DNA of 64,000 bases from positions 115,464-179,463 of the forward strand of contig CASERZ010000003.1 of NCBI GenBank assembly GCA_949290515.1, read 5' to 3'. Made by a program: the position numbers and the translations under genes. Positions 3,046 to 63,509 of the stretch are shown piece after piece; within the stretch, counting starts at the first letter, position 1, and each line of letters opens with the position of its first letter. Source of the DNA: an uncultured Christensenella sp. (GTDB lineage: Bacteria > Bacillota > Clostridia > Christensenellales > UBA3700). Under the pieces are notes generated by a model. It was not told where the DNA came from. It saw only the letters and a list, made by a program, of their open reading frames with translations, and ran no database searches.

Positions 3046-4029
3046 TTAAAGCATCTTTGCTCTGAGCTCTGCTCCGTCCATAGGAGAGAGATATGCGGGC
3101 GCGACGTCGAGTACGGTTATACAACCGCTCTTGCCCTCCTTGCTCATTCTGTATACCGCTCTCGCATAAGCAACGAGTACGGACGAGGTGAAAGCGGGAT
3201 TTGAATCGAGCTTGAGAGAATATTCGATTACGTTGTTGTATTCGTCGCTCGCTCCCGTCTTGCCGCTTCTGATTACAAAACCACCGTGAGGTATGCCGTT
3301 ATGCTTTTCCTTGAGCTCCTCCAAAGATATGAAGTTGACTGTAGTGTCATAGTCTGCAAAATAGTTGGGCATCTCTTTTATTTGCTTTTCGATAGACGCC
3401 TTGTCCGCTCCCTCTTCGACTACTACGTAGCACTCTCTCGTGTGCTTTTGTCTCGTGGTAAGCGAAGGGTTGCTTCCGCTTCTTACCGCTTCGAGCGCGC
3501 TCTCTACGGGTACGGTATACTGTCTTGCGTCAACTACGCCTTTAATTCTTCTGATAGCGTCGGAGTGTCCCTGACTTACGCCTTTGCCCCAGAAGGTATA
3601 GGTTGCGCCGCCGGGCAAAACGCTCTCTGCGTATACTCTGTTGAGAGAGAACATACCGGGGTCCCAACCGCAGCTGATAAGCGCGAGCTTGCCGTTTTCT
3701 TTAGCGGCTTTGTCTACATTGGAAAAATGCTGAGGAATGTTTGCGTGCGTATCGAAACTGTCGATTACGTTGAAATACTTTGCGACATTTGGAGTCTGTA
3801 CAGGCAAATCCGTAGCAGAGCCGCCGCAGAGTATGAGTACGTCTATATCGTCTTTGTATTTTGCGATATCGTCGGCTTTACATACCTGTACGCCCTTGGT
3901 GAGAGGCTGAATGCTCTCGGGGTTTCTTCTCGTAAAAATCGCGGTCAAAGCGGTGTCGGGATTGTGTGCGATTGCGCTCTCTACTCCCTTGCCGAGATTG
4001 CCGTAACCTAATATACCTATTCTTATCAT
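3046..4029 (-). CDS. ddh: meso-diaminopimelate D-dehydrogenase
   Basis: MIRIGILGYGNLGKGVE..., LILCGGSATD, SCGWDPGMFSLNRVYAE, FWGKGVSQGHSDAIRRIKGV and GIPHGGFVIR are collinear with Corynebacterium/Bacillus Ddh. Confidence 0.9.
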   Translation of the reverse strand: MIRIGILGYGNLGKGVESAIAHNPDTALTAIFTRRNPESIQPLTKGVQVCKADDIAKYKDDIDVLILCGGSATDLPVQTPNVAKYFNVIDSFDTHANIPQHFSNVDKAAKENGKLALISCGWDPGMFSLNRVYAESVLPGGATYTFWGKGVSQGHSDAIRRIKGVVDARQYTVPVESALEAVRSGSNPSLTTRQKHTRECYVVVEEGADKASIEKQIKEMPNYFADYDTTVNFISLEELKEKHNGIPHGGFVIRSGKTGASDEYNNVIEYSLKLDSNPAFTSSVLVAYARAVYRMSKEGKSGCITVLDVAPAYLSPMDGAELRAKML

Positions 4030-7736: not shown

Positions 7737-9308
7737 TTAGGCGTACAACTCTACGCTTCTTATTACGGGTACGGAACGCGATTGCTTTATCGTTATTCTC
7801 ACGAGATTTGTCTTGGGTAAATCCTTGAATACGAGGGTGCGTCTGTTGCCTATTACCGTGCTGTCGCCGATAATCTGCCATTTGTCGCCGACTTTTATCC
7901 ACACTTCGAATTCCTCTACCCTCTGAGAAAATCTTACGTCTTCTCTGATGTCGAAACGCGTTATGCTCACGCTCTCTTTGAGATAGAAATCCAACAAATA
8001 TTCGTTGTCTTCAAAAGTGTAGCCGTCTCTTTCGCTGTTGAGAAGCGCAGAGAGTTCGGGTTTTGTCTGCATGGAATTATTGTCGCCGACTTCTATACGT
8101 TCTATCTCTACGGGATTTGCCTTGCTTTCTGCCAAAGCTTCGCCGAATGCACGCAATACCTTCTCGTCTTTTTTAGAGATAAGTCCGTCTTTGTTGGGAG
8201 GGATATTGAGCAACAAGCTACTGTTGCCGCCTACTGACGTATAGTATATCTGCAAGAGGTGGTCAAGCTTCTTGGGGCTTTGATTCCAGTGATAGAACCA
8301 ACCTTTTCTTATGCTGACGTCGACTTCGGCGGGTCTCCACGCCAAATCCTGATATTTCTCCAAAAGTTCGCGACTTCCCAAATCTCTGTCCTCGTCGCTT
8401 ACTTTCTGCAACTCGTCCGCGCCGTCCTCGCTCGTCTGGAAGTTATCGCTAGCGGCATTGCTTACGCTGACTACGCTCCATTCGCTCTCGCGTGCAATTC
8501 CTGCCTCGTTGCCTACCCATCTTACGTCGCTGCCCTGTATAGCCGTAACGCAATTAGGCTGCAACTGCCGAATAAGCTCCTCATAGCCCTCAATGTCGTA
8601 GGCAAAATCCTCGTCGAGCTGAGCTTCCTCTCCCAACGCGCCGTCCATCCATACGCAGAATATCTCGCCGTATCTTCCGTCAAGCAGTTCGGTAAGCTGC
8701 GCTTTGTAAAAATCGTTGTACGCATTGGTGCCGTAACACTCTGCGTTCATATCCCAGGGAGAAAGGTATATACCCATCTTAAGTCCGTATTTTTTACAGC
8801 TTGCGGCAAGCTCTCCGACTATATCTCCGTTGCCGTCCTTATAAGGACTGTTTTTTATGCTGTGCTCGGTAGTCTCCGTCTGCCACAGACAAAAACCGTC
8901 GTGATGTTTTGCCGTGATTATAACGCCTTTGCTGCCCGACGCCTTGAGTATCTCGCACCACTGGTCGGTATCGAGTTTTTCGGGATTGAACTTCGCAGGG
9001 TCTTCGTTGCCCTTGCCCCATTCTCTGCCCGTCATAGTATTCATACCGAAGTGAATGAAGTTGTAATACTCCATTTCCATATAGTCGAGCTGTCTTTGCG
9101 AAGGCGTAACGCTTATAAGTCTGTCGACCTCTTCGCTCTCTTTGTCATAGCCGTTGTTGGTATTGCCGCAACCCTCGAGAAATTCTTCACCCTCTTTATA
9201 AGTCTTTGTGGGTACTTCGTAATAATTGTAATTCTTACATCCTGAAAAGAGCATACAAAGAGCCATAACGGTTACCCCCGCAATATAAATCAATCCTTTT
9301 TTTCTCAT
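7737..9308 (-). CDS. alpha-L-fucosidase (GH29) lipoprotein with a C-terminal F5/8-type-C-like domain
   Basis: Lipobox LFSGC. Also NPEKLDTDQWCEILKASGSKGVIITAKHHDGFCLWQT, YGLKMGIYLSPWD and GEIFCVWMDGA, which are GH29 hallmarks. Confidence 0.85.
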   Translation of the reverse strand: MRKKGLIYIAGVTVMALCMLFSGCKNYNYYEVPTKTYKEGEEFLEGCGNTNNGYDKESEEVDRLISVTPSQRQLDYMEMEYYNFIHFGMNTMTGREWGKGNEDPAKFNPEKLDTDQWCEILKASGSKGVIITAKHHDGFCLWQTETTEHSIKNSPYKDGNGDIVGELAASCKKYGLKMGIYLSPWDMNAECYGTNAYNDFYKAQLTELLDGRYGEIFCVWMDGALGEEAQLDEDFAYDIEGYEELIRQLQPNCVTAIQGSDVRWVGNEAGIARESEWSVVSVSNAASDNFQTSEDGADELQKVSDEDRDLGSRELLEKYQDLAWRPAEVDVSIRKGWFYHWNQSPKKLDHLLQIYYTSVGGNSSLLLNIPPNKDGLISKKDEKVLRAFGEALAESKANPVEIERIEVGDNNSMQTKPELSALLNSERDGYTFEDNEYLLDFYLKESVSITRFDIREDVRFSQRVEEFEVWIKVGDKWQIIGDSTVIGNRRTLVFKDLPKTNLVRITIKQSRSVPVIRSVELYA

Positions 9309-56015: not shown

Positions 56016-57593
56016 TTATTTTCCGCTGTCGCCGTAGTTGGACAATACTCTCGCAGAAGGGTCGTTGACGTCGCAGCCTTTCCACGACTTGTTGGGCATC
56101 CAGAAGTCGGCTATCATACGTCCCTGACCGGGGTAATATTTTTCAAACAGTTCTCTGTACAAAAGCGATTCTTTGGTAAAAGGCGTCGCGTGCGTATACT
56201 TTTTGCGTTTCTCTTCGTACTCTTCGTCGGTATACTTGCTCTCGGCATACTCCTTGAGATAGTCTACCATCGAGTGACCTACCGCGTCGGAAAAAGCCGC
56301 TTTTTCGCGGTAGAGTATGTCGTAAGGAAGATAATCGCCTTCGAAAGCTTTACGCAAAAGGTATTTACCCTTGTTGTACTTGTTGAGCTTTTTCTCGGGG
56401 TCCACCGACATAACGTATCTTACGAAATCCAAATCGCCGAAAGGTACTCTTGCCTCCAGAGAGTTGACGGATATACATCTGTCGGCTCTTAAGACGTCGT
56501 ACATATAAAGCTCGCTGATTCTCTTTTCCGCCTCTTGCTGAAAAGCCTCGGCAGAAGGCGCAAAATCCGTATACTTGTAGCCGAAAAGCTCGTCTGAGAT
56601 TTCACCCGTAAGCAACACTCTTATATCGCTAGTCTCGTGTATTGCCTTGCATACTAGATACATACCTATGCTGGCTCTTATCGTTGTTATATCGAAAGTA
56701 CCGAGAATTCTGACGACGGTTTCGAGCGAAGAGAGTACGTCGGATTTGTCTATTATCACCTCGGTATGCTCGCTGCCTATGTAATCGGCTACCTGTTTTG
56801 CATACTTGAGGTCTATAGCGTCCGTACTCATTCCTATCGAAAAGGTACGTATAGGCTTGGCAGATTTTTTAGCGGCAACAGCGCATACGAGTGATGAGTC
56901 CAGTCCTCCGCTTAGCAAGAACCCTACCTTGGCGTCTGCAACCAGTCTTTTCTCTATACCCGCAGTAAGTTTTTCGCGGATGTTGTCACAAATTTTTTCT
57001 ATACTATCATAGCACTTTTTGTCGGGTTTGGCAACATTTGTGTACCTAATAAATTGTCCGTCGCAATAAAAATGTGAAGGAGGAAAAGGAATAATTTCTT
57101 TTACAAGCCCTACTAAGTTGATTGCTTCGCTGGCAAAGACTATAACGCCCTTGTCGTCGTAACCGTAAAACAGCGGTCTTATACCGATAGGGTCGCGCGC
57201 CGCTACGTAACCGCCCTTTTTAGCGTCATAGATGATGCACGCAAACTCGGCATCGAGCATAGCAAACATATCCGTGCCGTATTTCTCGTACATAGGCAAG
57301 ATGATTTCGCAGTCGCTGCCGCTCTTAAACTCGTATTCGCTCGACAGTTCGCTCTTTACTTTTTCGTAGCCGTAAAGCTCGCCGTTGCATACGCAGTAAT
57401 TACCGTTGAGTTCGAAAGGTTGCATACCCTCGGGGGAAAGACCCATTATCGCAAGTCTGTGAAAACCGAGAAGTCCCTTGCCCGTATCCGCTATTCGCGT
57501 ATCGTCGGGGCCTCTCGATATGGTGCGGTCAAAACACTCTTTGAACAATTCTTTGTCTGCGCCCTCTGCGCAGTAACCCATAATCGAACACAT
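56016..57593 (-). CDS. asnB: asparagine synthase (glutamine-hydrolysing)
   Basis: MC... N-terminal nucleophile Cys2, LSGGLDSS PP-loop, and AsnB-type length. Confidence 0.9.
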   Translation of the reverse strand: MCSIMGYCAEGADKELFKECFDRTISRGPDDTRIADTGKGLLGFHRLAIMGLSPEGMQPFELNGNYCVCNGELYGYEKVKSELSSEYEFKSGSDCEIILPMYEKYGTDMFAMLDAEFACIIYDAKKGGYVAARDPIGIRPLFYGYDDKGVIVFASEAINLVGLVKEIIPFPPSHFYCDGQFIRYTNVAKPDKKCYDSIEKICDNIREKLTAGIEKRLVADAKVGFLLSGGLDSSLVCAVAAKKSAKPIRTFSIGMSTDAIDLKYAKQVADYIGSEHTEVIIDKSDVLSSLETVVRILGTFDITTIRASIGMYLVCKAIHETSDIRVLLTGEISDELFGYKYTDFAPSAEAFQQEAEKRISELYMYDVLRADRCISVNSLEARVPFGDLDFVRYVMSVDPEKKLNKYNKGKYLLRKAFEGDYLPYDILYREKAAFSDAVGHSMVDYLKEYAESKYTDEEYEEKRKKYTHATPFTKESLLYRELFEKYYPGQGRMIADFWMPNKSWKGCDVNDPSARVLSNYGDSGK

Positions 57594-57724
57594 AGTCTCT
57601 ACTCTCTTTAATTTATTTGTTCACCGCTTACCGCGGAAGAATATCATATTGAATAAGCGTTTCTTTACGCGCTTACCTGCATCTCTACGCGCTTTTCTTA
57701 AGAAAATACTGTATGTAAAAAGGT

Positions 57725-57766
57725 AAAAAAATAAGGTGCCTCTGAGTGAATTCTCAAAGACACCTT
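57725..57766 (-). terminator. intrinsic terminator immediately downstream of the asnB-side promoter (leader attenuator or short RNA)
   Basis: Minus strand aaggtgtctttgag-aattc-actcagaggcacctt (14-15 bp including G-U pairs) followed by attttttt. It starts about 10 nt after the predicted TSS and ends about 130 nt before the asnB ATG. Confidence 0.65.
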
Positions 57767-57783
57767 TGCCTTTTGTTAGTTGA

Positions 57784-57812
57784 ATTATACTCGCATCGGT
57801 ATATCTTGTCAA
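57784..57812 (-). promoter_or_regulatory. consensus sigma-A promoter facing asnB
   Basis: Minus strand TTGACA (57807-57812), 17 nt spacer, TATAAT (57784-57789). Confidence 0.7.
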
Positions 57813-57963
57813 CGGTTTTTGAATATTTTTTTGCATTCTACAAATAATTCAAATACTTTTTCAAGCTTTACTTACGCTATATATACTTTATTTCATATTA
57901 TTCATCATACGCTTAAATGGAGACAGAAAAATTTTCCTTTTCGAAAAAATATACTCGAGTTTG

Positions 57964-57992
57964 TTGACAGCCCAAATCTCTTATGCTAAAAT
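57964..57992 (+). promoter_or_regulatory. consensus sigma-A promoter facing the glutamate synthase operon
   Basis: TTGACA (57964-57969), 17 nt spacer, TGcTAAAAT (57987-57992). Confidence 0.7.
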
Positions 57993-58005
57993 TTCCGTAA
58001 TGAGC

Positions 58006-58057
58006 AAAGGCGTTCATTCAGAGGACATCGTGTCCTTTTGAATGAGCGCCTTTTTTT
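58006..58057 (+). terminator. intrinsic terminator immediately downstream of the promoter (leader attenuator or short RNA)
   Basis: aaaggcgttcattcagaggaca-tcg-tgtccttttgaatgagcgccttt, about 22 bp with a few mismatches or G-U pairs, then ttttttt. It lies 100 nt upstream of the ATG at 58157. Confidence 0.7.
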
Positions 58058-58156
58058 ATACCTGAAAATATCGTCAACCTTTTACGCGGAAACAGGCATA
58101 TCGCACCCGCTCCGCATACAAATAAAAATCAGTAAATTAAGAGTAAGGAATTTATT

Positions 58157-59248
58157 ATGCAGTTAGAAGGTCAAATCAGAATACCCTCGGGTTGCGCAAT
58201 CGCGGCGGTAATATCAAAAGAGGGCAAAAAAATGAGCGGCAAAAGCATCGTCGACAGTATGGTGCCTATGCACGAGAGAAGCAACGGCCTCGGCGGCGGC
58301 TTTGCCGGCTACGGAATCTATCCCGAGTACAAGGACTTTTATGCTTTCCACTTTTTCTTCGACAACAGAAGCGTACAAAAAGATACCGAACAGTATCTCA
58401 AAGAAAGCTATGAGATAGTCAAGTCGCAGCCTATTCCCGTACGCAAAATCCCCGCTATCGTAGACGAGCCTATTGTTTATCGCTATTTTCTCGCTCCTCT
58501 CAAGTCGTCCGTTGCAAACGCTCAACTCGACGAAAGAGAATTCGTGGCGCGCACAGTAATGCATATCAATATAAATATCAAGGGCGCGTACGTAGTTTCC
58601 AGCGGAAAAAATATGGGCGTATTCAAAGCCGTCGGCTTCCCCGAAGACGTAGGTAAATTCTACCGTCTCGACGAATACGAGGGCTACTCGTGGACGGCTC
58701 ACGGCCGCTATCCCACTAATACCCCCGGCTGGTGGGGCGGCGCGCATCCCTTTGCGCTTCTCGACTACACTATCGTTCACAACGGCGAAATATCTTCCTA
58801 CGACGCCAACAGAAGATTTATAGAAATGTACGGATACAAATGCACCCTTCAGACGGATACGGAAGTTATTACGTATATATCCGATTACCTGTTGAGAAAA
58901 CAGGGCTTGACGCTCGACGAACTCGCTTCCGTAATCGCCGCGCCTTTCTGGTCGACTATCGCAAAGAAGTCCCCCGAAGAAAGAGCAAAACTCACATATC
59001 TGCGCACGGTTTACTCCGGCCTTCTCGTAACGGGTCCTTTCTCCATCGTACTAGGCTTCGAAGGCGGACTTATGGCTCTCAACGACAGACTTAAGTTACG
59101 CTCGATGGTCGTTGCGGAAAAAGACGACAAGGTTTATGTAGCAAGCGAGGAAGCCTCTATAAGGGTTATGTGTCCCGACGTAAAAGACGTCTACGCTCCC
59201 GAGGGCGGCGAACCCGTAATAGTAAAAGTTGAGGAGGGCAAGTACTGA
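58157..59248 (+). CDS. glutamate synthase, class II glutamine amidotransferase domain protein (split, archaeal-type subunit)
   Basis: PSGCAIAAV (nucleophile Cys after a short propeptide), HGRYPTNTPGWWGGAHPF and VHNGEISSY. Confidence 0.8.
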   Translation: MQLEGQIRIPSGCAIAAVISKEGKKMSGKSIVDSMVPMHERSNGLGGGFAGYGIYPEYKDFYAFHFFFDNRSVQKDTEQYLKESYEIVKSQPIPVRKIPAIVDEPIVYRYFLAPLKSSVANAQLDEREFVARTVMHININIKGAYVVSSGKNMGVFKAVGFPEDVGKFYRLDEYEGYSWTAHGRYPTNTPGWWGGAHPFALLDYTIVHNGEISSYDANRRFIEMYGYKCTLQTDTEVITYISDYLLRKQGLTLDELASVIAAPFWSTIAKKSPEERAKLTYLRTVYSGLLVTGPFSIVLGFEGGLMALNDRLKLRSMVVAEKDDKVYVASEEASIRVMCPDVKDVYAPEGGEPVIVKVEEGKY

Positions 59249-60753
59249 TGCAAGCAGAATTTATATATCCCGAATACGAAGTAGTGCGCAACGACGCCCG
59301 CTGTACGCGTTGCCGTATATGCGAAACACAATGCGCTCACGGCGTACACTTTTACTCCGACAAAAACAAAATTATGCTGAGCGACGATACAAAGTGCGTC
59401 AACTGCCAGCGTTGCGTTTCGGTATGTCCTACGCGCGCCATCAAAATCGTCAAAAGCGACTGCGCTCTCAAAGAAAACGCCAACTGGCAAAACGATACCG
59501 TACGCGAAATCTATAAGCAGGCTCAAAGCGGCGGCGTATTGCTCTCCTCTATGGGCAATCCCAAGCCTCTTCCCACCTACTTCGATAAAATACTCATCAA
59601 TGCGTCACAGGTTACCAATCCCCCTATCGACCCTTTGAGAGAGCCTATGGAAACGCGCGTTTTCTTAGGCAAAAAACCCTCGTCCGTAAAAAGAGACAAG
59701 GACGGTAAACTCCTATGCGATATACCACCTCAACTCGAACTTTCGCTGCCCGTAATGTTTTCGGCAATGAGTTACGGCTCGATAAGCTACAACGCTCACG
59801 AAAGCCTGGCAAAAGCAGCTACCGCTCTCGGCACGTATTACAACACGGGAGAAGGCGGCCTGCACGAAAACTTCTACCCTTTCAGCGCGAATACTATAGT
59901 ACAAGTAGCTTCGGGAAGATTCGGCGTACACGAAAAATATCTTCAGACGGGCGCGGCAATCGAAATCAAAATGGGTCAGGGCGCAAAGCCCGGTATAGGC
60001 GGACATTTGCCCGGCTCCAAAATCGTTGGGGACGTAGCGCGCACCAGAATGGTACCCGAAGGCTCTGACGCAATCTCCCCCGCTCCTCATCACGATATTT
60101 ACTCAATCGAAGATTTGCGACAGCTCGTATACTCGCTCAAAGAAGCTACCGAATATAAAAAGCCCGTAATCGTAAAAGTTGCCGCCGTACACAATATCGC
60201 GGCAATAGCCAGCGGTATCGCGAGAAGCGGTGCAGACATTATAGCGATAGACGGATTCAGAGGCGGTACGGGAGCGGCACCTACACGTATTCGCGACAAC
60301 GTAGGTATTCCCGTCGAACTCGCTCTTGCCGCCGTCGACCAAAGACTTCGCGACGAAGGCATCAGAAACGACGTGTCGATTATAGCGGGCGGAAGCATAA
60401 GAAGCGCAGCCGACGTAGTCAAAGCAGTGGCACTAGGCGCAGACGCGTGCTATATCGCTACAGCCGCACTCATAGCTATGGGCTGTCATCTTTGCCGCAA
60501 CTGTCAAAGCGGTAAATGCAACTGGGGTATAGCTACTCAGCGTCCCGAACTCGTCAGCCGTCTTGACCCCGAATGGGGAGCAAAACGTCTTGTCAATCTC
60601 CTGTCTGCCTGGAAACACGAGATAATGGAGATTATGGGAGGTATGGGCATCAACTCCATAGAAGCTCTCAAAGGCAACCGCCTTATGCTCAGGGGCATAG
60701 GCCTCAATCAAAAAGAACTGGATATTCTCGGCATACTCCACGCGGGAGAATAA
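59248..60753 (+). CDS. glutamate synthase FMN/Fe-S domain protein with N-terminal 2x[4Fe-4S] ferredoxin motifs
   Basis: CTRCRICETQCAHG and CVNCQRCVSVCP. Also GEGG, KMGQGAKPGIGGHLPG, SPAPHHDIYSIEDL, DGFRGGTGAAP and the CHLCRNCQSGKC cluster. Confidence 0.88.
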   Translation: MQAEFIYPEYEVVRNDARCTRCRICETQCAHGVHFYSDKNKIMLSDDTKCVNCQRCVSVCPTRAIKIVKSDCALKENANWQNDTVREIYKQAQSGGVLLSSMGNPKPLPTYFDKILINASQVTNPPIDPLREPMETRVFLGKKPSSVKRDKDGKLLCDIPPQLELSLPVMFSAMSYGSISYNAHESLAKAATALGTYYNTGEGGLHENFYPFSANTIVQVASGRFGVHEKYLQTGAAIEIKMGQGAKPGIGGHLPGSKIVGDVARTRMVPEGSDAISPAPHHDIYSIEDLRQLVYSLKEATEYKKPVIVKVAAVHNIAAIASGIARSGADIIAIDGFRGGTGAAPTRIRDNVGIPVELALAAVDQRLRDEGIRNDVSIIAGGSIRSAADVVKAVALGADACYIATAALIAMGCHLCRNCQSGKCNWGIATQRPELVSRLDPEWGAKRLVNLLSAWKHEIMEIMGGMGINSIEALKGNRLMLRGIGLNQKELDILGILHAGE

Positions 60754-60779
60754 CTTTTGCACATTCAATAGGTGATAAT

Positions 60780-61499
60780 ATGATTATAGACGCAAGACAA
60801 TATACCAACGAAGATTTGAACAATACCGTCAGGCAATGCGCCTCTCAGGTACAGATAGACAACTGTCTGGGACAGAGATTTATAGGAGCGGGTCTGAGCG
60901 GCAAAAAAATAACCGTCAACGGCACTCCCGGCAACGCTCTTGGAGCATACCTCAACGGCGCGGACATCGTAGTCAACGGCAATGCGCAGGACGCAGTAGG
61001 AGATACGATGAACGAAGGCTGTATATTCATACACGGCAATACGGGCGACGCCGCGGGCTACGCTATGCGCGGCGGCAAAATTTACGTCGAAGGCAACGCG
61101 GGCTACCGCGCGGGCATTCATATGAAAGCCTATAAGCAAAAGCTGCCCGTAATGATTATCGGCGGAAGATGCGGAAGTTTTCTCGGAGAATACCTCGCGG
61201 GCGGTATAATCGTCGTGTTGGGTATGAATACCGACGGCAAAAAAATCGTGGGCAACTTCCCTTGCACGGGTATGCACGGCGGAAAGGTCTACTTGCGTAC
61301 TACGGACAATTCAATAGACTTCCCTTCGCAAGTCAATACGCATAAAGCGACAAAAGAAGATATGCAGGAGATAATTCCTTATCTGGAAGAATTCTGTAAG
61401 GTATTCGGCAAAAATCCTGACGAACTGCTCAAAGAAGGTTTTACGGTAGTTTCTCCCAACACTGCCAATCCCTACAAGCAGATGTACGTCACCAACTGA
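60780..61499 (+). CDS. glutamate synthase GXGXG-domain protein (alpha-subunit C-terminal domain)
   Basis: Repeated GxGxG beta-helix pattern: VNGTPGNALGAYLNGADIVVNGNAQDAVGDTMNEGCIFIHGNTGDAAGYAMRGGKIYVEGNAGYRAG. ATG at 60780 after AGGTGA. Confidence 0.85.
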   Translation: MIIDARQYTNEDLNNTVRQCASQVQIDNCLGQRFIGAGLSGKKITVNGTPGNALGAYLNGADIVVNGNAQDAVGDTMNEGCIFIHGNTGDAAGYAMRGGKIYVEGNAGYRAGIHMKAYKQKLPVMIIGGRCGSFLGEYLAGGIIVVLGMNTDGKKIVGNFPCTGMHGGKVYLRTTDNSIDFPSQVNTHKATKEDMQEIIPYLEEFCKVFGKNPDELLKEGFTVVSPNTANPYKQMYVTN

Positions 61500-61685
61500 C
61501 GCCATTGCCGTGATACAGGGCTTAACGGCAAAAATTTGCTCTGCCAGAAAGTCTTTTGTTTTTCAAAATCATTGATTAATTATCCGAAATTATATATAAT
61601 ACTGATAAGAAATATTTTTATCGGTATCTCTAAAATATATCTTTTTTACGGTCGCTATTACTTCCGTAAAGCGTAAGGAGACATT

Positions 61686-62894
61686 ATGAAATATTCTAAG
61701 GAAGAAGTATTGCAATACGTTGCCGAGGAAGACGTCAAATTTATACGTCTTGCCTTTTGCGACGTCTACGGCGTGCAGAAAAACATATCGGTTATGCCCC
61801 ACGAATTAAAACGCGCTTTCGAGTACGGCATAGCCATTGACGCTTCTGCCATAGAGGGCTTCGAAGACGAGGTCCACTCCGATTTGTTTTTACACCCCGA
61901 CCCGTCCACGCTTACGGTTTTGCCCTGGCGTCCCGAGCACGGAAGAGTAGTGAGAATGTTTTGCAATATCTCCTACCCTGACGGTACGCCTTATACCAAC
62001 GATACGAGAAGCCTTCTCGTCAAAGCCGTAGAGGAAGCAAAAAGTCTCGGCTATACCTTTTACTTCGGCGCGGAAATGGAATTTTACCTTTTCCGCCTGA
62101 ACGAATACGGAAAGCCCACCAAGGAGCCTTACGACAACGCAAAATATATGGATATCGCACCCGACGACAAAGGCGAAAACGTAAGACGCGAAATCTGTCT
62201 TACGCTCGAGCAGATGGGCATAAGTCCCGAAAGCTCGCACCACGAAGAAGGTCCCGGGCAAAACGAAATCGACTTCCGTTATTCCGACGCGCTTTCCGCG
62301 GCTGACAATGCCGTAACGTTCAAATCGGTAGTCAAGACGGTAGCCGCTCGCAACGGACTTTATGCCGACTTCTCCCCCAAACCTCTCGAGAACTGCGCGG
62401 GCAACGGACTGCATATCAATATGTCGGTACGCGACAAAAGCGGAAAGGAACTTATCGACGCGCTTATACCCGCACTTTTGGAAAAGACGGGAGAAATCAC
62501 GCTTTTCCTCAATCCCGTAGCCGACTCTTACAAACGTCTGGGAAACAACAAAGCTCCCGCATATATCTCGTGGTCGGCGCAAAACCGCTCGCAGCTTATA
62601 CGAATTCCCGCCGCTATAGGAGAATACAAAAGGCTTGAGTTGCGTTCTCCCGACCCCGAGGCAAATCCTTATCTGGCTTTTACTTTGCTTATCTATGCGG
62701 GACTGTACGGCTTGACGAAAAAGCTTCCCCTGCCCCCTCCCGCAGACGTAAACTTCTTTACCCTCGACAAGGCGGCACTTGCTGAATTCAAAAGGCTTCC
62801 CTCGACTTTGGAAGAAGCTAAAGTACAGGCAAAGGCAAGCGCGTTTGTGCAGGAACATCTGCCCGAATCGCTCATTAACGCTTATTGCAGATAG
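61686..62894 (+). CDS. glnA: glutamine synthetase (type I-like, short C-terminus)
   Basis: VKFIRLAFCDVYG, EMEFYLF, SHHEEGPGQNEIDF, KPLENCAGNGLHINMS, NSYKRL and NRSQLIRIP. Confidence 0.9.
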   Translation: MKYSKEEVLQYVAEEDVKFIRLAFCDVYGVQKNISVMPHELKRAFEYGIAIDASAIEGFEDEVHSDLFLHPDPSTLTVLPWRPEHGRVVRMFCNISYPDGTPYTNDTRSLLVKAVEEAKSLGYTFYFGAEMEFYLFRLNEYGKPTKEPYDNAKYMDIAPDDKGENVRREICLTLEQMGISPESSHHEEGPGQNEIDFRYSDALSAADNAVTFKSVVKTVAARNGLYADFSPKPLENCAGNGLHINMSVRDKSGKELIDALIPALLEKTGEITLFLNPVADSYKRLGNNKAPAYISWSAQNRSQLIRIPAAIGEYKRLELRSPDPEANPYLAFTLLIYAGLYGLTKKLPLPPPADVNFFTLDKAALAEFKRLPSTLEEAKVQAKASAFVQEHLPESLINAYCR

Positions 62895-62924: not shown

Positions 62925-63509
62925 ATGGCTTTAGAAGAGCGGGTTTACAGCGTTCTGATAGTATCTCAGTCGGAGAAGTTCAAAACTTCTCTGACCCCTC
63001 TTTTGCCAAAAACAAATTTCTCTCCCGTAACATTCGCGCCAAGCTTTTCTTCTGCAAAGAAAATGCTTTTGGAAAGACACTACGATTTGCTTATTATCAA
63101 CACACCTCTTCTCGACGACTTCGGCACCAAGCTTGCAATAGACGCCAGCAACGAAAAAGGAGTGGCAACACTGCTTCTCGTCAAACAGGACTTGTATGAC
63201 GAGACGTATTCCAAGGTTTGCCGTTTCGGAGTTTTCACTCTTGCAAAGCCGACCTCGCCTCAAAATTTCAGAATGGCAATAGACTGGCTGTGCGCGCTCA
63301 GAGAAAAGCTGAGGAAGTTTGAAAAGACCATCTCTTCGGTCGAAGATAAAATGCAGGAGATACGTCTTGTCAACAGAGCTAAATGGATACTTATCGACAC
63401 TCTGAAAATGAGCGAAGAAGACGCGCACTACTATATAGAAAAACAAGCTATGGACAAATGCTTATCAAAAACGGATATTGCAAAAAATATTATAAATTCA
63501 TATAAATAA
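62925..63509 (+). CDS. ANTAR-domain RNA-binding antiterminator with an atypical (pseudo-)receiver domain
   Basis: C-terminal ANTAR: EIRLVNRAKWILIDTLKMSEEDAHYYIEKQAMDKCLSKTDIAKNII. In the N-terminal receiver-like fold, the usual phospho-acceptor position reads DLLIIN (Asn, not Asp). Confidence 0.8.
   Translation: MALEERVYSVLIVSQSEKFKTSLTPLLPKTNFSPVTFAPSFSSAKKMLLERHYDLLIINTPLLDDFGTKLAIDASNEKGVATLLLVKQDLYDETYSKVCRFGVFTLAKPTSPQNFRMAIDWLCALREKLRKFEKTISSVEDKMQEIRLVNRAKWILIDTLKMSEEDAHYYIEKQAMDKCLSKTDIAKNIINSYK

Follow-up and report, generated by a model that had tools for sequence, protein, structure and literature searches.

Divergent leaders between asnB and a glutamate synthase-glnA-ANTAR operon in an uncultured Christensenella are probably single-hexaloop attenuators under ANTAR control

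Introduction

Antitermination of nitrogen genes by ANTAR proteins is an established principle. In some systems, such as AmiC-AmiR and NasS-NasT, the ANTAR protein has a receiver-like domain that is not phosphorylated and is controlled by a sensor encoded alongside. The canonical RNA target is a pair of hairpins in tandem, joined by a short linker, whose stems have at least 3 bp and whose six-base loops each carry A at position 1 (A1) and G at position 4 (G4); the second hairpin overlaps a terminator (PMC3369931). In 2012, ANTAR regulons for glutamine synthetase (GS), glutamate synthase (GOGAT) and asparagine synthase were predicted in Desulfotomaculum, Alkaliphilus, Carboxydothermus, Mahella and one Clostridium sp., and the dual-hairpin search of that study listed no GS or GOGAT match for three Lachnospiraceae genomes, those of Roseburia, Butyrivibrio and Eubacterium eligens (PMC3369931). 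The structure of EutV with RNA set the minimal ANTAR site at a single hexaloop, whose G4 stacks on Tyr164, and left open the extent to which single hexaloops are used (Walshe et al. 2022; PMC8934654). In Clostridium saccharobutylicum, GS and GOGAT genes are reported to be induced by antitermination through NitR under nitrogen limitation, as cited in PMC6316151. Here, we describe two short divergent leaders in a 64,000-nucleotide stretch of DNA from an uncultured Christensenella sp. (assembly GCA_949290515.1, contig CASERZ010000003.1, positions 115,464 to 179,463; hereafter the window), one before asnB and the other before an operon encoding GOGAT, glnA and an ANTAR protein, and we propose that both are attenuators probably relieved by that protein.

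The principle of such control is not new. What differs here is that a single hairpin stands at the 5' end of the transcript, that its sequence is near-invariant, that the regulator is a pseudo-receiver protein and that the family extends broadly across gut Clostridia. The papers searched for mention of this particular leader, or of the targets of NitR, contained nothing specific.

Results

The 560-base gap between asnB on the minus strand and the first glutamate synthase gene on the plus strand (58157) contains two divergent promoters, which are the two top promoter matches in the 8 kb scanned. Each is directly followed by a stem-loop containing G+C and an immediate U-run, the features of an intrinsic terminator (Table 1). 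Folding energies are -21.4 kcal/mol for the asnB-leader terminator (z = -5.95 against shuffles) and -34 kcal/mol for that of the leader before the glutamate synthase operon (the glt leader; z = -8.1), so that the promoter scan and the folding scores both uphold the initial annotation, made from the sequence alone, in its description of back-to-back consensus promoters, each directly before a strong terminator.

Table 1. Coordinates of the leaders, genes and related motif copies. Positions refer to the window unless a related locus (L and a number) is named.
Feature	Location	Strand	Details
asnB leader promoter	57812..57784	-	TTGACA-17-TATAAT, 12/12 match
P1 of asnB leader	57773..57756	-	AAAGGC-AAAGGU-GUCUUU, 6 pairs including one G.U, A1/G4 hexaloop
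asnB leader intrinsic terminator	57725..57766	-	14 bp stem 57766..57733, hexaloop AAUUCA, A+U7 to 57725
asnB, glutamine-hydrolysing asparagine synthase	56016..57593	-	NCBIfam NF006949, 601 bits, above cut-off; putatively regulated minus-strand gene
glt leader promoter (GOGAT-glnA-ANTAR operon)	57964..57992	+	TTGACA-17-TGcTAAAAT, extended -10, 11/12 plus TG
P1 of glt leader	57999..58018	+	AAUGAGC-AAAGGC-GUUCAUU, 7 pairs, A1/G4 hexaloop
glt leader intrinsic terminator	58006..58057	+	~22 bp stem 58006-58053, loop UCG, U7 at 58051-58057
Split (archaeal-type) glutamate synthase, whole	58157..61499	+	Pfam; gene order as in relatives
Glutamate synthase part GATase_2	58157-59248	+	Pfam
Glutamate synthase part Fer4 + Glu_synthase	59248-60753	+	Pfam
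Glutamate synthase part GXGXG	about 60780-61499	+	Pfam
Glutamine synthetase (glnA)	61686..62894	+	Short, 402 amino acids, GSI-alpha-like; Pfam Gln-synt_N + Gln-synt_C
Pseudo-receiver + ANTAR protein	62925..63509	+	194 amino acids, last gene of the operon, presumed antiterminator; Pfam ANTAR (PF03861) 6.4e-14
Tandem P1-terminator units before glnN	L016 2689-2822, L048 4356-4489, L067 5020-5144, L023 4947-5102, L045 3355-3504, L074 3378-3519	-	
Motif copy outside core cluster	L058 10636-10699	+	After ANTAR gene, before CTP synthase (pyrG-like), then open reading frames of 404 and 1060 amino acids
Motif copy outside core cluster	L030 685-739	-	Before SAICAR synthetase (purC-like)
Leader missed by model R1	L046 about 8455-8530	-	
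Further leaders missed by model R1	L058, L059, L021, L029, L049, L052, L075		
Near-perfect palindromic copies	L012 8468-8525, L014 1918-1978, L026 5285-5355, L028 925-982, L040 6915-6976		

In both leaders a small hairpin, which we call P1, follows the promoter at once, beginning 6 nt after the end of the -10 hexamer in the glt leader and 9-10 nt after it in the asnB leader, the latter a spacing also seen in relatives. Its hexaloop, AAAGGY, is closed by a C-G pair that stands above a G.U pair. The loop and 3' arm of P1 double as the 5' arm of the terminator in each leader, and therefore P1 and the terminator exclude each other. Truncated transcripts, in which the distal terminator arm has not yet been made, are predicted to fold into P1 and the terminator apex. 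P1 of the glt leader alone amounts to about -5.3 kcal/mol (the sequence is identical in L016), and because a hairpin of about -5 kcal/mol competes with terminators of -21 to -34 kcal/mol, termination should be the default unless P1 is held. The pairing of AAUGAGC with GUUCAUU that had been put forward as an antiterminator of the glt leader is thus real and corresponds to P1. For the asnB leader, the small hexaloop hairpin proposed earlier exists, with a stem of 6 bp and not the 3 bp given, and a scan for a second hexaloop agrees with the earlier count of a single convincing hexaloop hairpin per leader.

The decamer GCAAAGGYGU, noted from the outset as common to both leaders, proved to be the conserved core of a leader family. 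As a bare sequence it is within chance in the window as a whole (15 matches, with 7.6 +/- 2.9 expected). Exact matches occur at two other places (3578-3587 and 8923-8932); both lie in apparent coding sequence and have no terminator after them, and a covariance model of the leaders, R1, finds no additional leader copy at nine further one-mismatch matches in the window. A second shared sequence, UCAGAGG, had been noted in both hairpins; we reject it as a functional box and regard the sharing as coincidence, as it lies in different arms in the two leaders and is kept neither in L003 nor in other relatives.

Related leaders were sought around homologues of the ANTAR protein. A protein search gave 1739 of these, and an alignment of 24 led to 80 genomic loci from Christensenellaceae (the closest, at 91%), Lachnospiraceae, Oscillospiraceae, Ruminococcaceae and Allobaculum. 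When both leaders were compared with these loci by BLAST, the 20-mer of the glt-leader P1 was found to be identical in many distant loci and families, and scans by regular expression and folding collected 63 clean copies, each with its terminator and U-run. The copies fall into two sequence classes, AUGAGC/GUUCAU before the glutamate synthase operon and AAAGGC/GUCUUU, or class B, before other genes; the asnB leader of the window belongs to class B. Within P1, GCAAAGGCGU is invariant in most copies. Model R1, built on an unfitted MAFFT alignment, detects the glt leader at 57995-58062 (55.7 bits) and the asnB leader at 57723-57778 (52.2 bits), with no other real match in the rest of the window. 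Across the loci it gives 119 matches, or 91 once the two-strand readings of palindromic copies are merged, in 48 of the 80 loci, one of them a Roseburia genome (L017). Position 1 of the hexaloop is A in 90 of the 91 matches, the sole G being that of the L058 copy outside the core cluster (loop GAAGGC); A2, G4 and the closing C-G pair are present in all 91, and positions 3, 5 and 6 vary, the last two as R5 and Y6. Leaders of glnN (type III GS) and gltGAT that R1 had missed show the same architecture with other hexaloops in eight of nine regions (AUUGAU, AUCGAC, AAGGAC, AAAGGA, AAUGGU, AAUGAC, AACGGC and AAGGGA), all C-G-closed with A1 and G4 in a scan that itself selected for A..G.. loops; 2 of 16 control regions upstream of glnA match, and one of these 2 is a true motif copy. 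Two checks that the initial annotation had suggested are thereby answered: folding the leaders and running a covariance model supports the P1/terminator switch and reveals its family, and the search for further GCAAAGGYGU-terminator leaders yields none more in the window and copies in those 48 loci. A pattern scan of metagenomes for GCAAAGGCGT-N20-50-CGCCTTT was discarded, having returned mostly chance matches; 7 of the 80 loci returned reach the model score, and gltGAT, glnN or glnA-ANTAR adjoins the true motif in 5 of these 7.

Both helices covary. In P1, 91.5% of cells are paired, 5 of the 7 pairs have changed on both sides, and the covariation score was reached by 0 of 500 shuffles, with 43-55% of cells paired in slid registers. 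The terminator helix has 91.8% of cells paired and 8 of 17 pairs changed on both sides, against 36-57% in slid registers (unfitted MAFFT alignment). Double changes also occur within a class, from U-A to C-G in L013 and from U-A to A-U in L047. A G.U pair is conserved at P1 pair 8/17 (35 of 37 sequences) and at terminator pair 10/71 (25 of 45), and the central hairpin varies in length with its pairing kept; these two features speak for an RNA structure and not for a DNA operator.

The position of the element in the transcript is equally regular. A promoter matching at least 10 of 12 consensus positions ends 4-10 nt before P1 in 43 of the 63 copies, compared with 5 of 2000 random positions, which means that P1 is transcribed first and that a hairpin upstream of it has no room. 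An upstream hexaloop completing the canonical pair was accordingly ruled out, since the promoter -10 ends 6-10 nt before P1. The genes behind the 91 copies are those for GOGAT, glnN, gdhA, asnB and glnA-ANTAR, together with pyrG and purC, once each. Where upstream DNA exists, the motif precedes gltGAT in 33 of 35 cases, glnN in 31 of 39 and gdhA in 5 of 5. The layout is conserved: on one side the motif or motifs are followed, sometimes after gdhA, by glnN and asnB, and on the other by GATase_2, Glu_synthase, often one more gene, GXGXG, glnA and the ANTAR gene. The window and its two closest relatives have no glnN at this site and carry the class B leader directly before asnB. Two attenuators in tandem are common before glnN, and the three tandem leaders checked for promoters (L016, L048 and L067) have one only before the first unit; two checkpoints in series would sharpen the response.

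The gene assignments on which this picture rests (asnB, glutamate synthase, glnA and ANTAR), already made by the initial annotation, hold in Pfam and NCBIfam. The ANTAR domain aligns with those of PdtaR, EutV, AmiR and NasR. Its His168 is the counterpart of Tyr164 in EutV, which stacks on G4; the equivalent residue is likewise His in AmiR and is Phe in PdtaR. In the receiver-like N-terminal domain, PdtaR (1s8n) and EutV (6wsh) have the acceptor Asp where this protein has Asn59, a residue that does not vary among 24 homologues, and the acidic pair is replaced by Ser14/Gln15. Both the acceptor Asp and the acidic pair of a phosphorylated receiver are thus missing, and by its sequence the domain is a pseudo-receiver, as is that of AmiR. 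No histidine kinase gene adjoins the ANTAR gene. Given the missing acceptor Asp, a ligand or partner protein, and not phosphorylation, probably controls the activity of the protein.

Wherever a locus extends far enough, the gene immediately before the ANTAR gene is that of the 402-amino-acid GS. The encoded protein is shorter than the usual GSI of about 444 amino acids and falls under every NCBIfam equivalog cut-off; its nearest solved structures are glutamine synthetase chains of ~440-470 residues (8ufj, 8tfb and 4lnf), which we take to be GSI-alpha enzymes of Methanosarcina and Bacillus. The GSI-alpha class is known to bind regulators. Most relatives also have a type III GS (glnN) under the same kind of leader, and the 402-amino-acid GS might therefore not be the main enzyme but serve as a sensor or partner.

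Against Rfam 15 at gathering threshold, the window gives a single tRNA, elsewhere than the leaders; at E <= 10 over 57550-58200 the best score is 23 bits against thresholds of 44-95, and no family matches.

Discussion

We propose that the two divergent leaders are attenuators that are OFF by default and are switched ON by antitermination of the ANTAR type, a reading to which we give a probability of roughly 0.78. Our confidence in the attenuators as such is higher than in the ANTAR mechanism; we infer the identity of the P1-binding protein, the sense in which it regulates and the signal. A near-consensus promoter of the sigma-A type would begin transcription 0-3 nt before P1. In the OFF state, once the distal arm is made, a helix of 14-22 bp (-21 to -34 kcal/mol) would displace the weak P1 and, with U7, end the transcript after ~55-65 nt. 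In the ON state, the active pseudo-receiver/ANTAR protein (62925-63509) would bind the P1 hexaloop and keep P1 closed, so that only the top of the terminator could form, at least 13 nt from the U-run, and transcription would read through into asnB or the GOGAT-glnA-ANTAR operon. Because the ANTAR gene lies inside the regulated operon, the regulator would also raise its own synthesis. By analogy with NitR of Clostridium saccharobutylicum, the switch is expected to be ON under nitrogen limitation.

The terminator/antiterminator attenuators suggested in the initial annotation are strongly supported by the recurrence of the same architecture before nitrogen-assimilation genes in 48 of the 80 loci and by the covariation of both helices. 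The further suggestion of ANTAR control gains from indirect signs, namely the retention of A1 and G4, the closing C-G pair in 91 of 91 matches, the place of the ANTAR gene at the end of the operon and the His at the G4-stacking position. Several observations weigh on the other side. Only copies with 5 or more pairs entered the P1 test, so its percentage of paired cells is inflated, and most double changes simply divide AUGAGC/GUUCAU from AAAGGC/GUCUUU, leaving fewer independent changes than the cell counts suggest. The loci were gathered through the ANTAR protein, a design that biases them toward having motif and protein together, and R1 was trained on AAAGGY loops and favours A1 and G4 in its matches. 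A second A..G.. hexaloop downstream of P1 was found in 10 of the 63 copies, compared with 5.8 +/- 2.3 in shuffles, and the tandem arrangement of known targets is thus missing; the loops at the terminator apex range from 3 to 12 nt, and only 2 of them are A1/G4 hexaloops. Finally, the authors of the EutV-RNA structure suggest that single hexaloops may suffice only where no transcribing polymerase imposes a time limit (PMC8934654).

Comparison with described systems places the locus close to, and apart from, each of them. With the canonical targets (EutV/eut of Enterococcus faecalis, NasR/nasF and AmiR/amiE; Ramesh et al. 2012, PMC3369931) these leaders share the A1/G4 hexaloop, the conserved closing pair, the competition with a terminator, the nearby ANTAR gene and the association with nitrogen-metabolism genes; they differ in having one hairpin, equivalent to the canonical second, where the canonical target has two, and in stem and loop sequences that are far more conserved. 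Both window leaders present an A1/G4 hexaloop (AAAGGC and AAAGGU) on a stem of at least 3 bp, in both the hexaloop overlaps the terminator and the two helices covary, and an ANTAR protein (PF03861) is encoded in the genome, as it is, by the design of the search, in all related loci. They resemble the minimal site of the EutV structure in that one G4 hexaloop is enough to contact an ANTAR dimer, with His168 at the Tyr164 position, and they differ in that the single hexaloop sits here in a co-transcriptional terminator switch; a natural family of single-hexaloop antiterminators is not described in that paper (PMC8934654).

As far as the glnA-nitR-gltAB cluster of C. saccharobutylicum can be followed from its citation in PMC6316151, the likeness is that the ANTAR gene comes directly after glnA, and that the GS/GOGAT antitermination reported there under nitrogen limitation would correspond to the leader before the GOGAT operon here. 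At the level of genes, our locus differs in its GOGAT-glnA-ANTAR order, in the split archaeal type of GOGAT, and in a regulon that in relatives reaches asnB, glnN, gdhA, pyrG and purC. With AmiC-AmiR and NasS-NasT the likeness lies in the missing acceptor Asp (Asn59) and in an invariable upstream neighbour gene; the neighbouring gene here encodes a glutamine synthetase and not a sensor of the periplasmic-binding-protein type.

The alternative that survives best keeps the attenuators and assigns P1 to another reader: a different RNA-binding protein, for instance one of the PII type or one associated with GS, or a small ligand that the RNA senses directly, as a riboswitch does. The P1 sequence (GCAAAGGCGU) is far more conserved than canonical ANTAR targets, in which mainly A1 and G4 stay, and the canonical dual hexaloop is absent, as this alternative would have it. 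However, the loop positions that vary are exactly those that ANTAR proteins tolerate, with A1, G4 and the closing pair kept, and in every locus the ANTAR gene lies within the regulated operon; moreover, a conserved RNA of ~20 nt is too small for known riboswitch aptamers, and no Rfam family matches. We therefore regard a reader other than the ANTAR protein as improbable.

The initial annotation had offered, as an alternative to attenuation, two divergent short RNAs of about 50-60 nt. As products these are no rival to attenuation, as short RNAs are what its OFF state is expected to yield. A genuine rival is that independent divergent small RNAs of ~55-65 nt act in trans and that the downstream genes have promoters of their own. 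A strong promoter followed by a strong terminator is also the anatomy of a small RNA gene, the distances from terminator to start codon in the window are long (103 nt for glt and 184 nt for asnB), and the 8-kb promoter scan shows a weaker promoter-like site at 57864..57835. In relatives, however, the terminator usually lies 21-58 nt from a start codon on the same strand, which leaves no space for a second promoter. The element always points toward a nitrogen gene, units occur in tandem within one leader (L016, L048 and L067), and the conserved part is the switch region with no seed-like single strand, and so we consider independent small RNAs very unlikely. Least credible of all is a reading in which a dimeric transcription factor would bind the inverted repeats as DNA operators and the RNA structures would be incidental: several copies are near-perfect palindromes that score on both strands (L012, L014, L026 and L040), but the conserved G.U wobbles (P1 pair 8/17 and terminator pair 10/71) would be meaningless in DNA, the centre of the repeat varies (loops of 3-12 nt, differing stem lengths) with the pairing kept, the U-run is on the gene side, and the element, being downstream of the -10 box, is itself transcribed.

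Within the proposed ANTAR-controlled attenuation, it is tempting to go one step further, to a view that we hold as speculative and rather doubtful: one 5'-terminal hexaloop would suffice for co-transcriptional ANTAR antitermination, and the activity of the pseudo-receiver would be set not by phosphorylation but by the GS encoded upstream, which would serve as the nitrogen sensor of an RNA-level regulon. Feedback-inhibited GS could then sequester the ANTAR protein, a step with precedents in AmiC with AmiR and in GS with TnrA and GlnR in Bacillus. If this were true, in many gut Clostridia GS would sense nitrogen for GOGAT, GS, glutamate dehydrogenase, asparagine synthase and further enzymes that use glutamine, and the invariant GS-ANTAR gene pair with its non-phosphorylatable receiver suggests a sensor mechanism that can be tested. 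More generally, the existence of a widespread natural family of one-hexaloop terminator switches bears on whether single hexaloops work against a transcribing polymerase. The leaders also supply a searchable signature (TTGACA-17-TATAAT, 6-10 nt, then NNNGC-AAAGGY-GUNNN nested in a terminator) that would mark the nitrogen regulon in many gut and rumen Clostridia that have not been cultured (Christensenellaceae, Lachnospiraceae, Oscillospiraceae and Allobaculum).

Some further features of the locus deserve mention. Neither model R1 nor a scan of the region finds a leader of the P1 kind before glnA in the window gap 61499-61686; the 186-nt gap upstream of glnA has a promoter-like site of its own, TTGATT-17-TATAAT at 61572-61600, which could provide basal synthesis of GS and the regulator independently of the attenuator. 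An extra gene of ~1.7 kb lies between Glu_synthase and GXGXG in most relatives (L005, L010, L014 and others) and is absent from the window, L002, L003, L007, L008, L013 and some others. The minus-strand stretch of about 130 nt between the asnB terminator and the start codon (57594-57722) is predicted to fold into further hairpins and is kept in the closest relative, L002, and not in L003. The palindromic copies of the motif in Table 1 have A-runs upstream and U-runs downstream and score as the motif on both strands, and where neighbouring genes diverge or converge they could terminate transcription in both directions.

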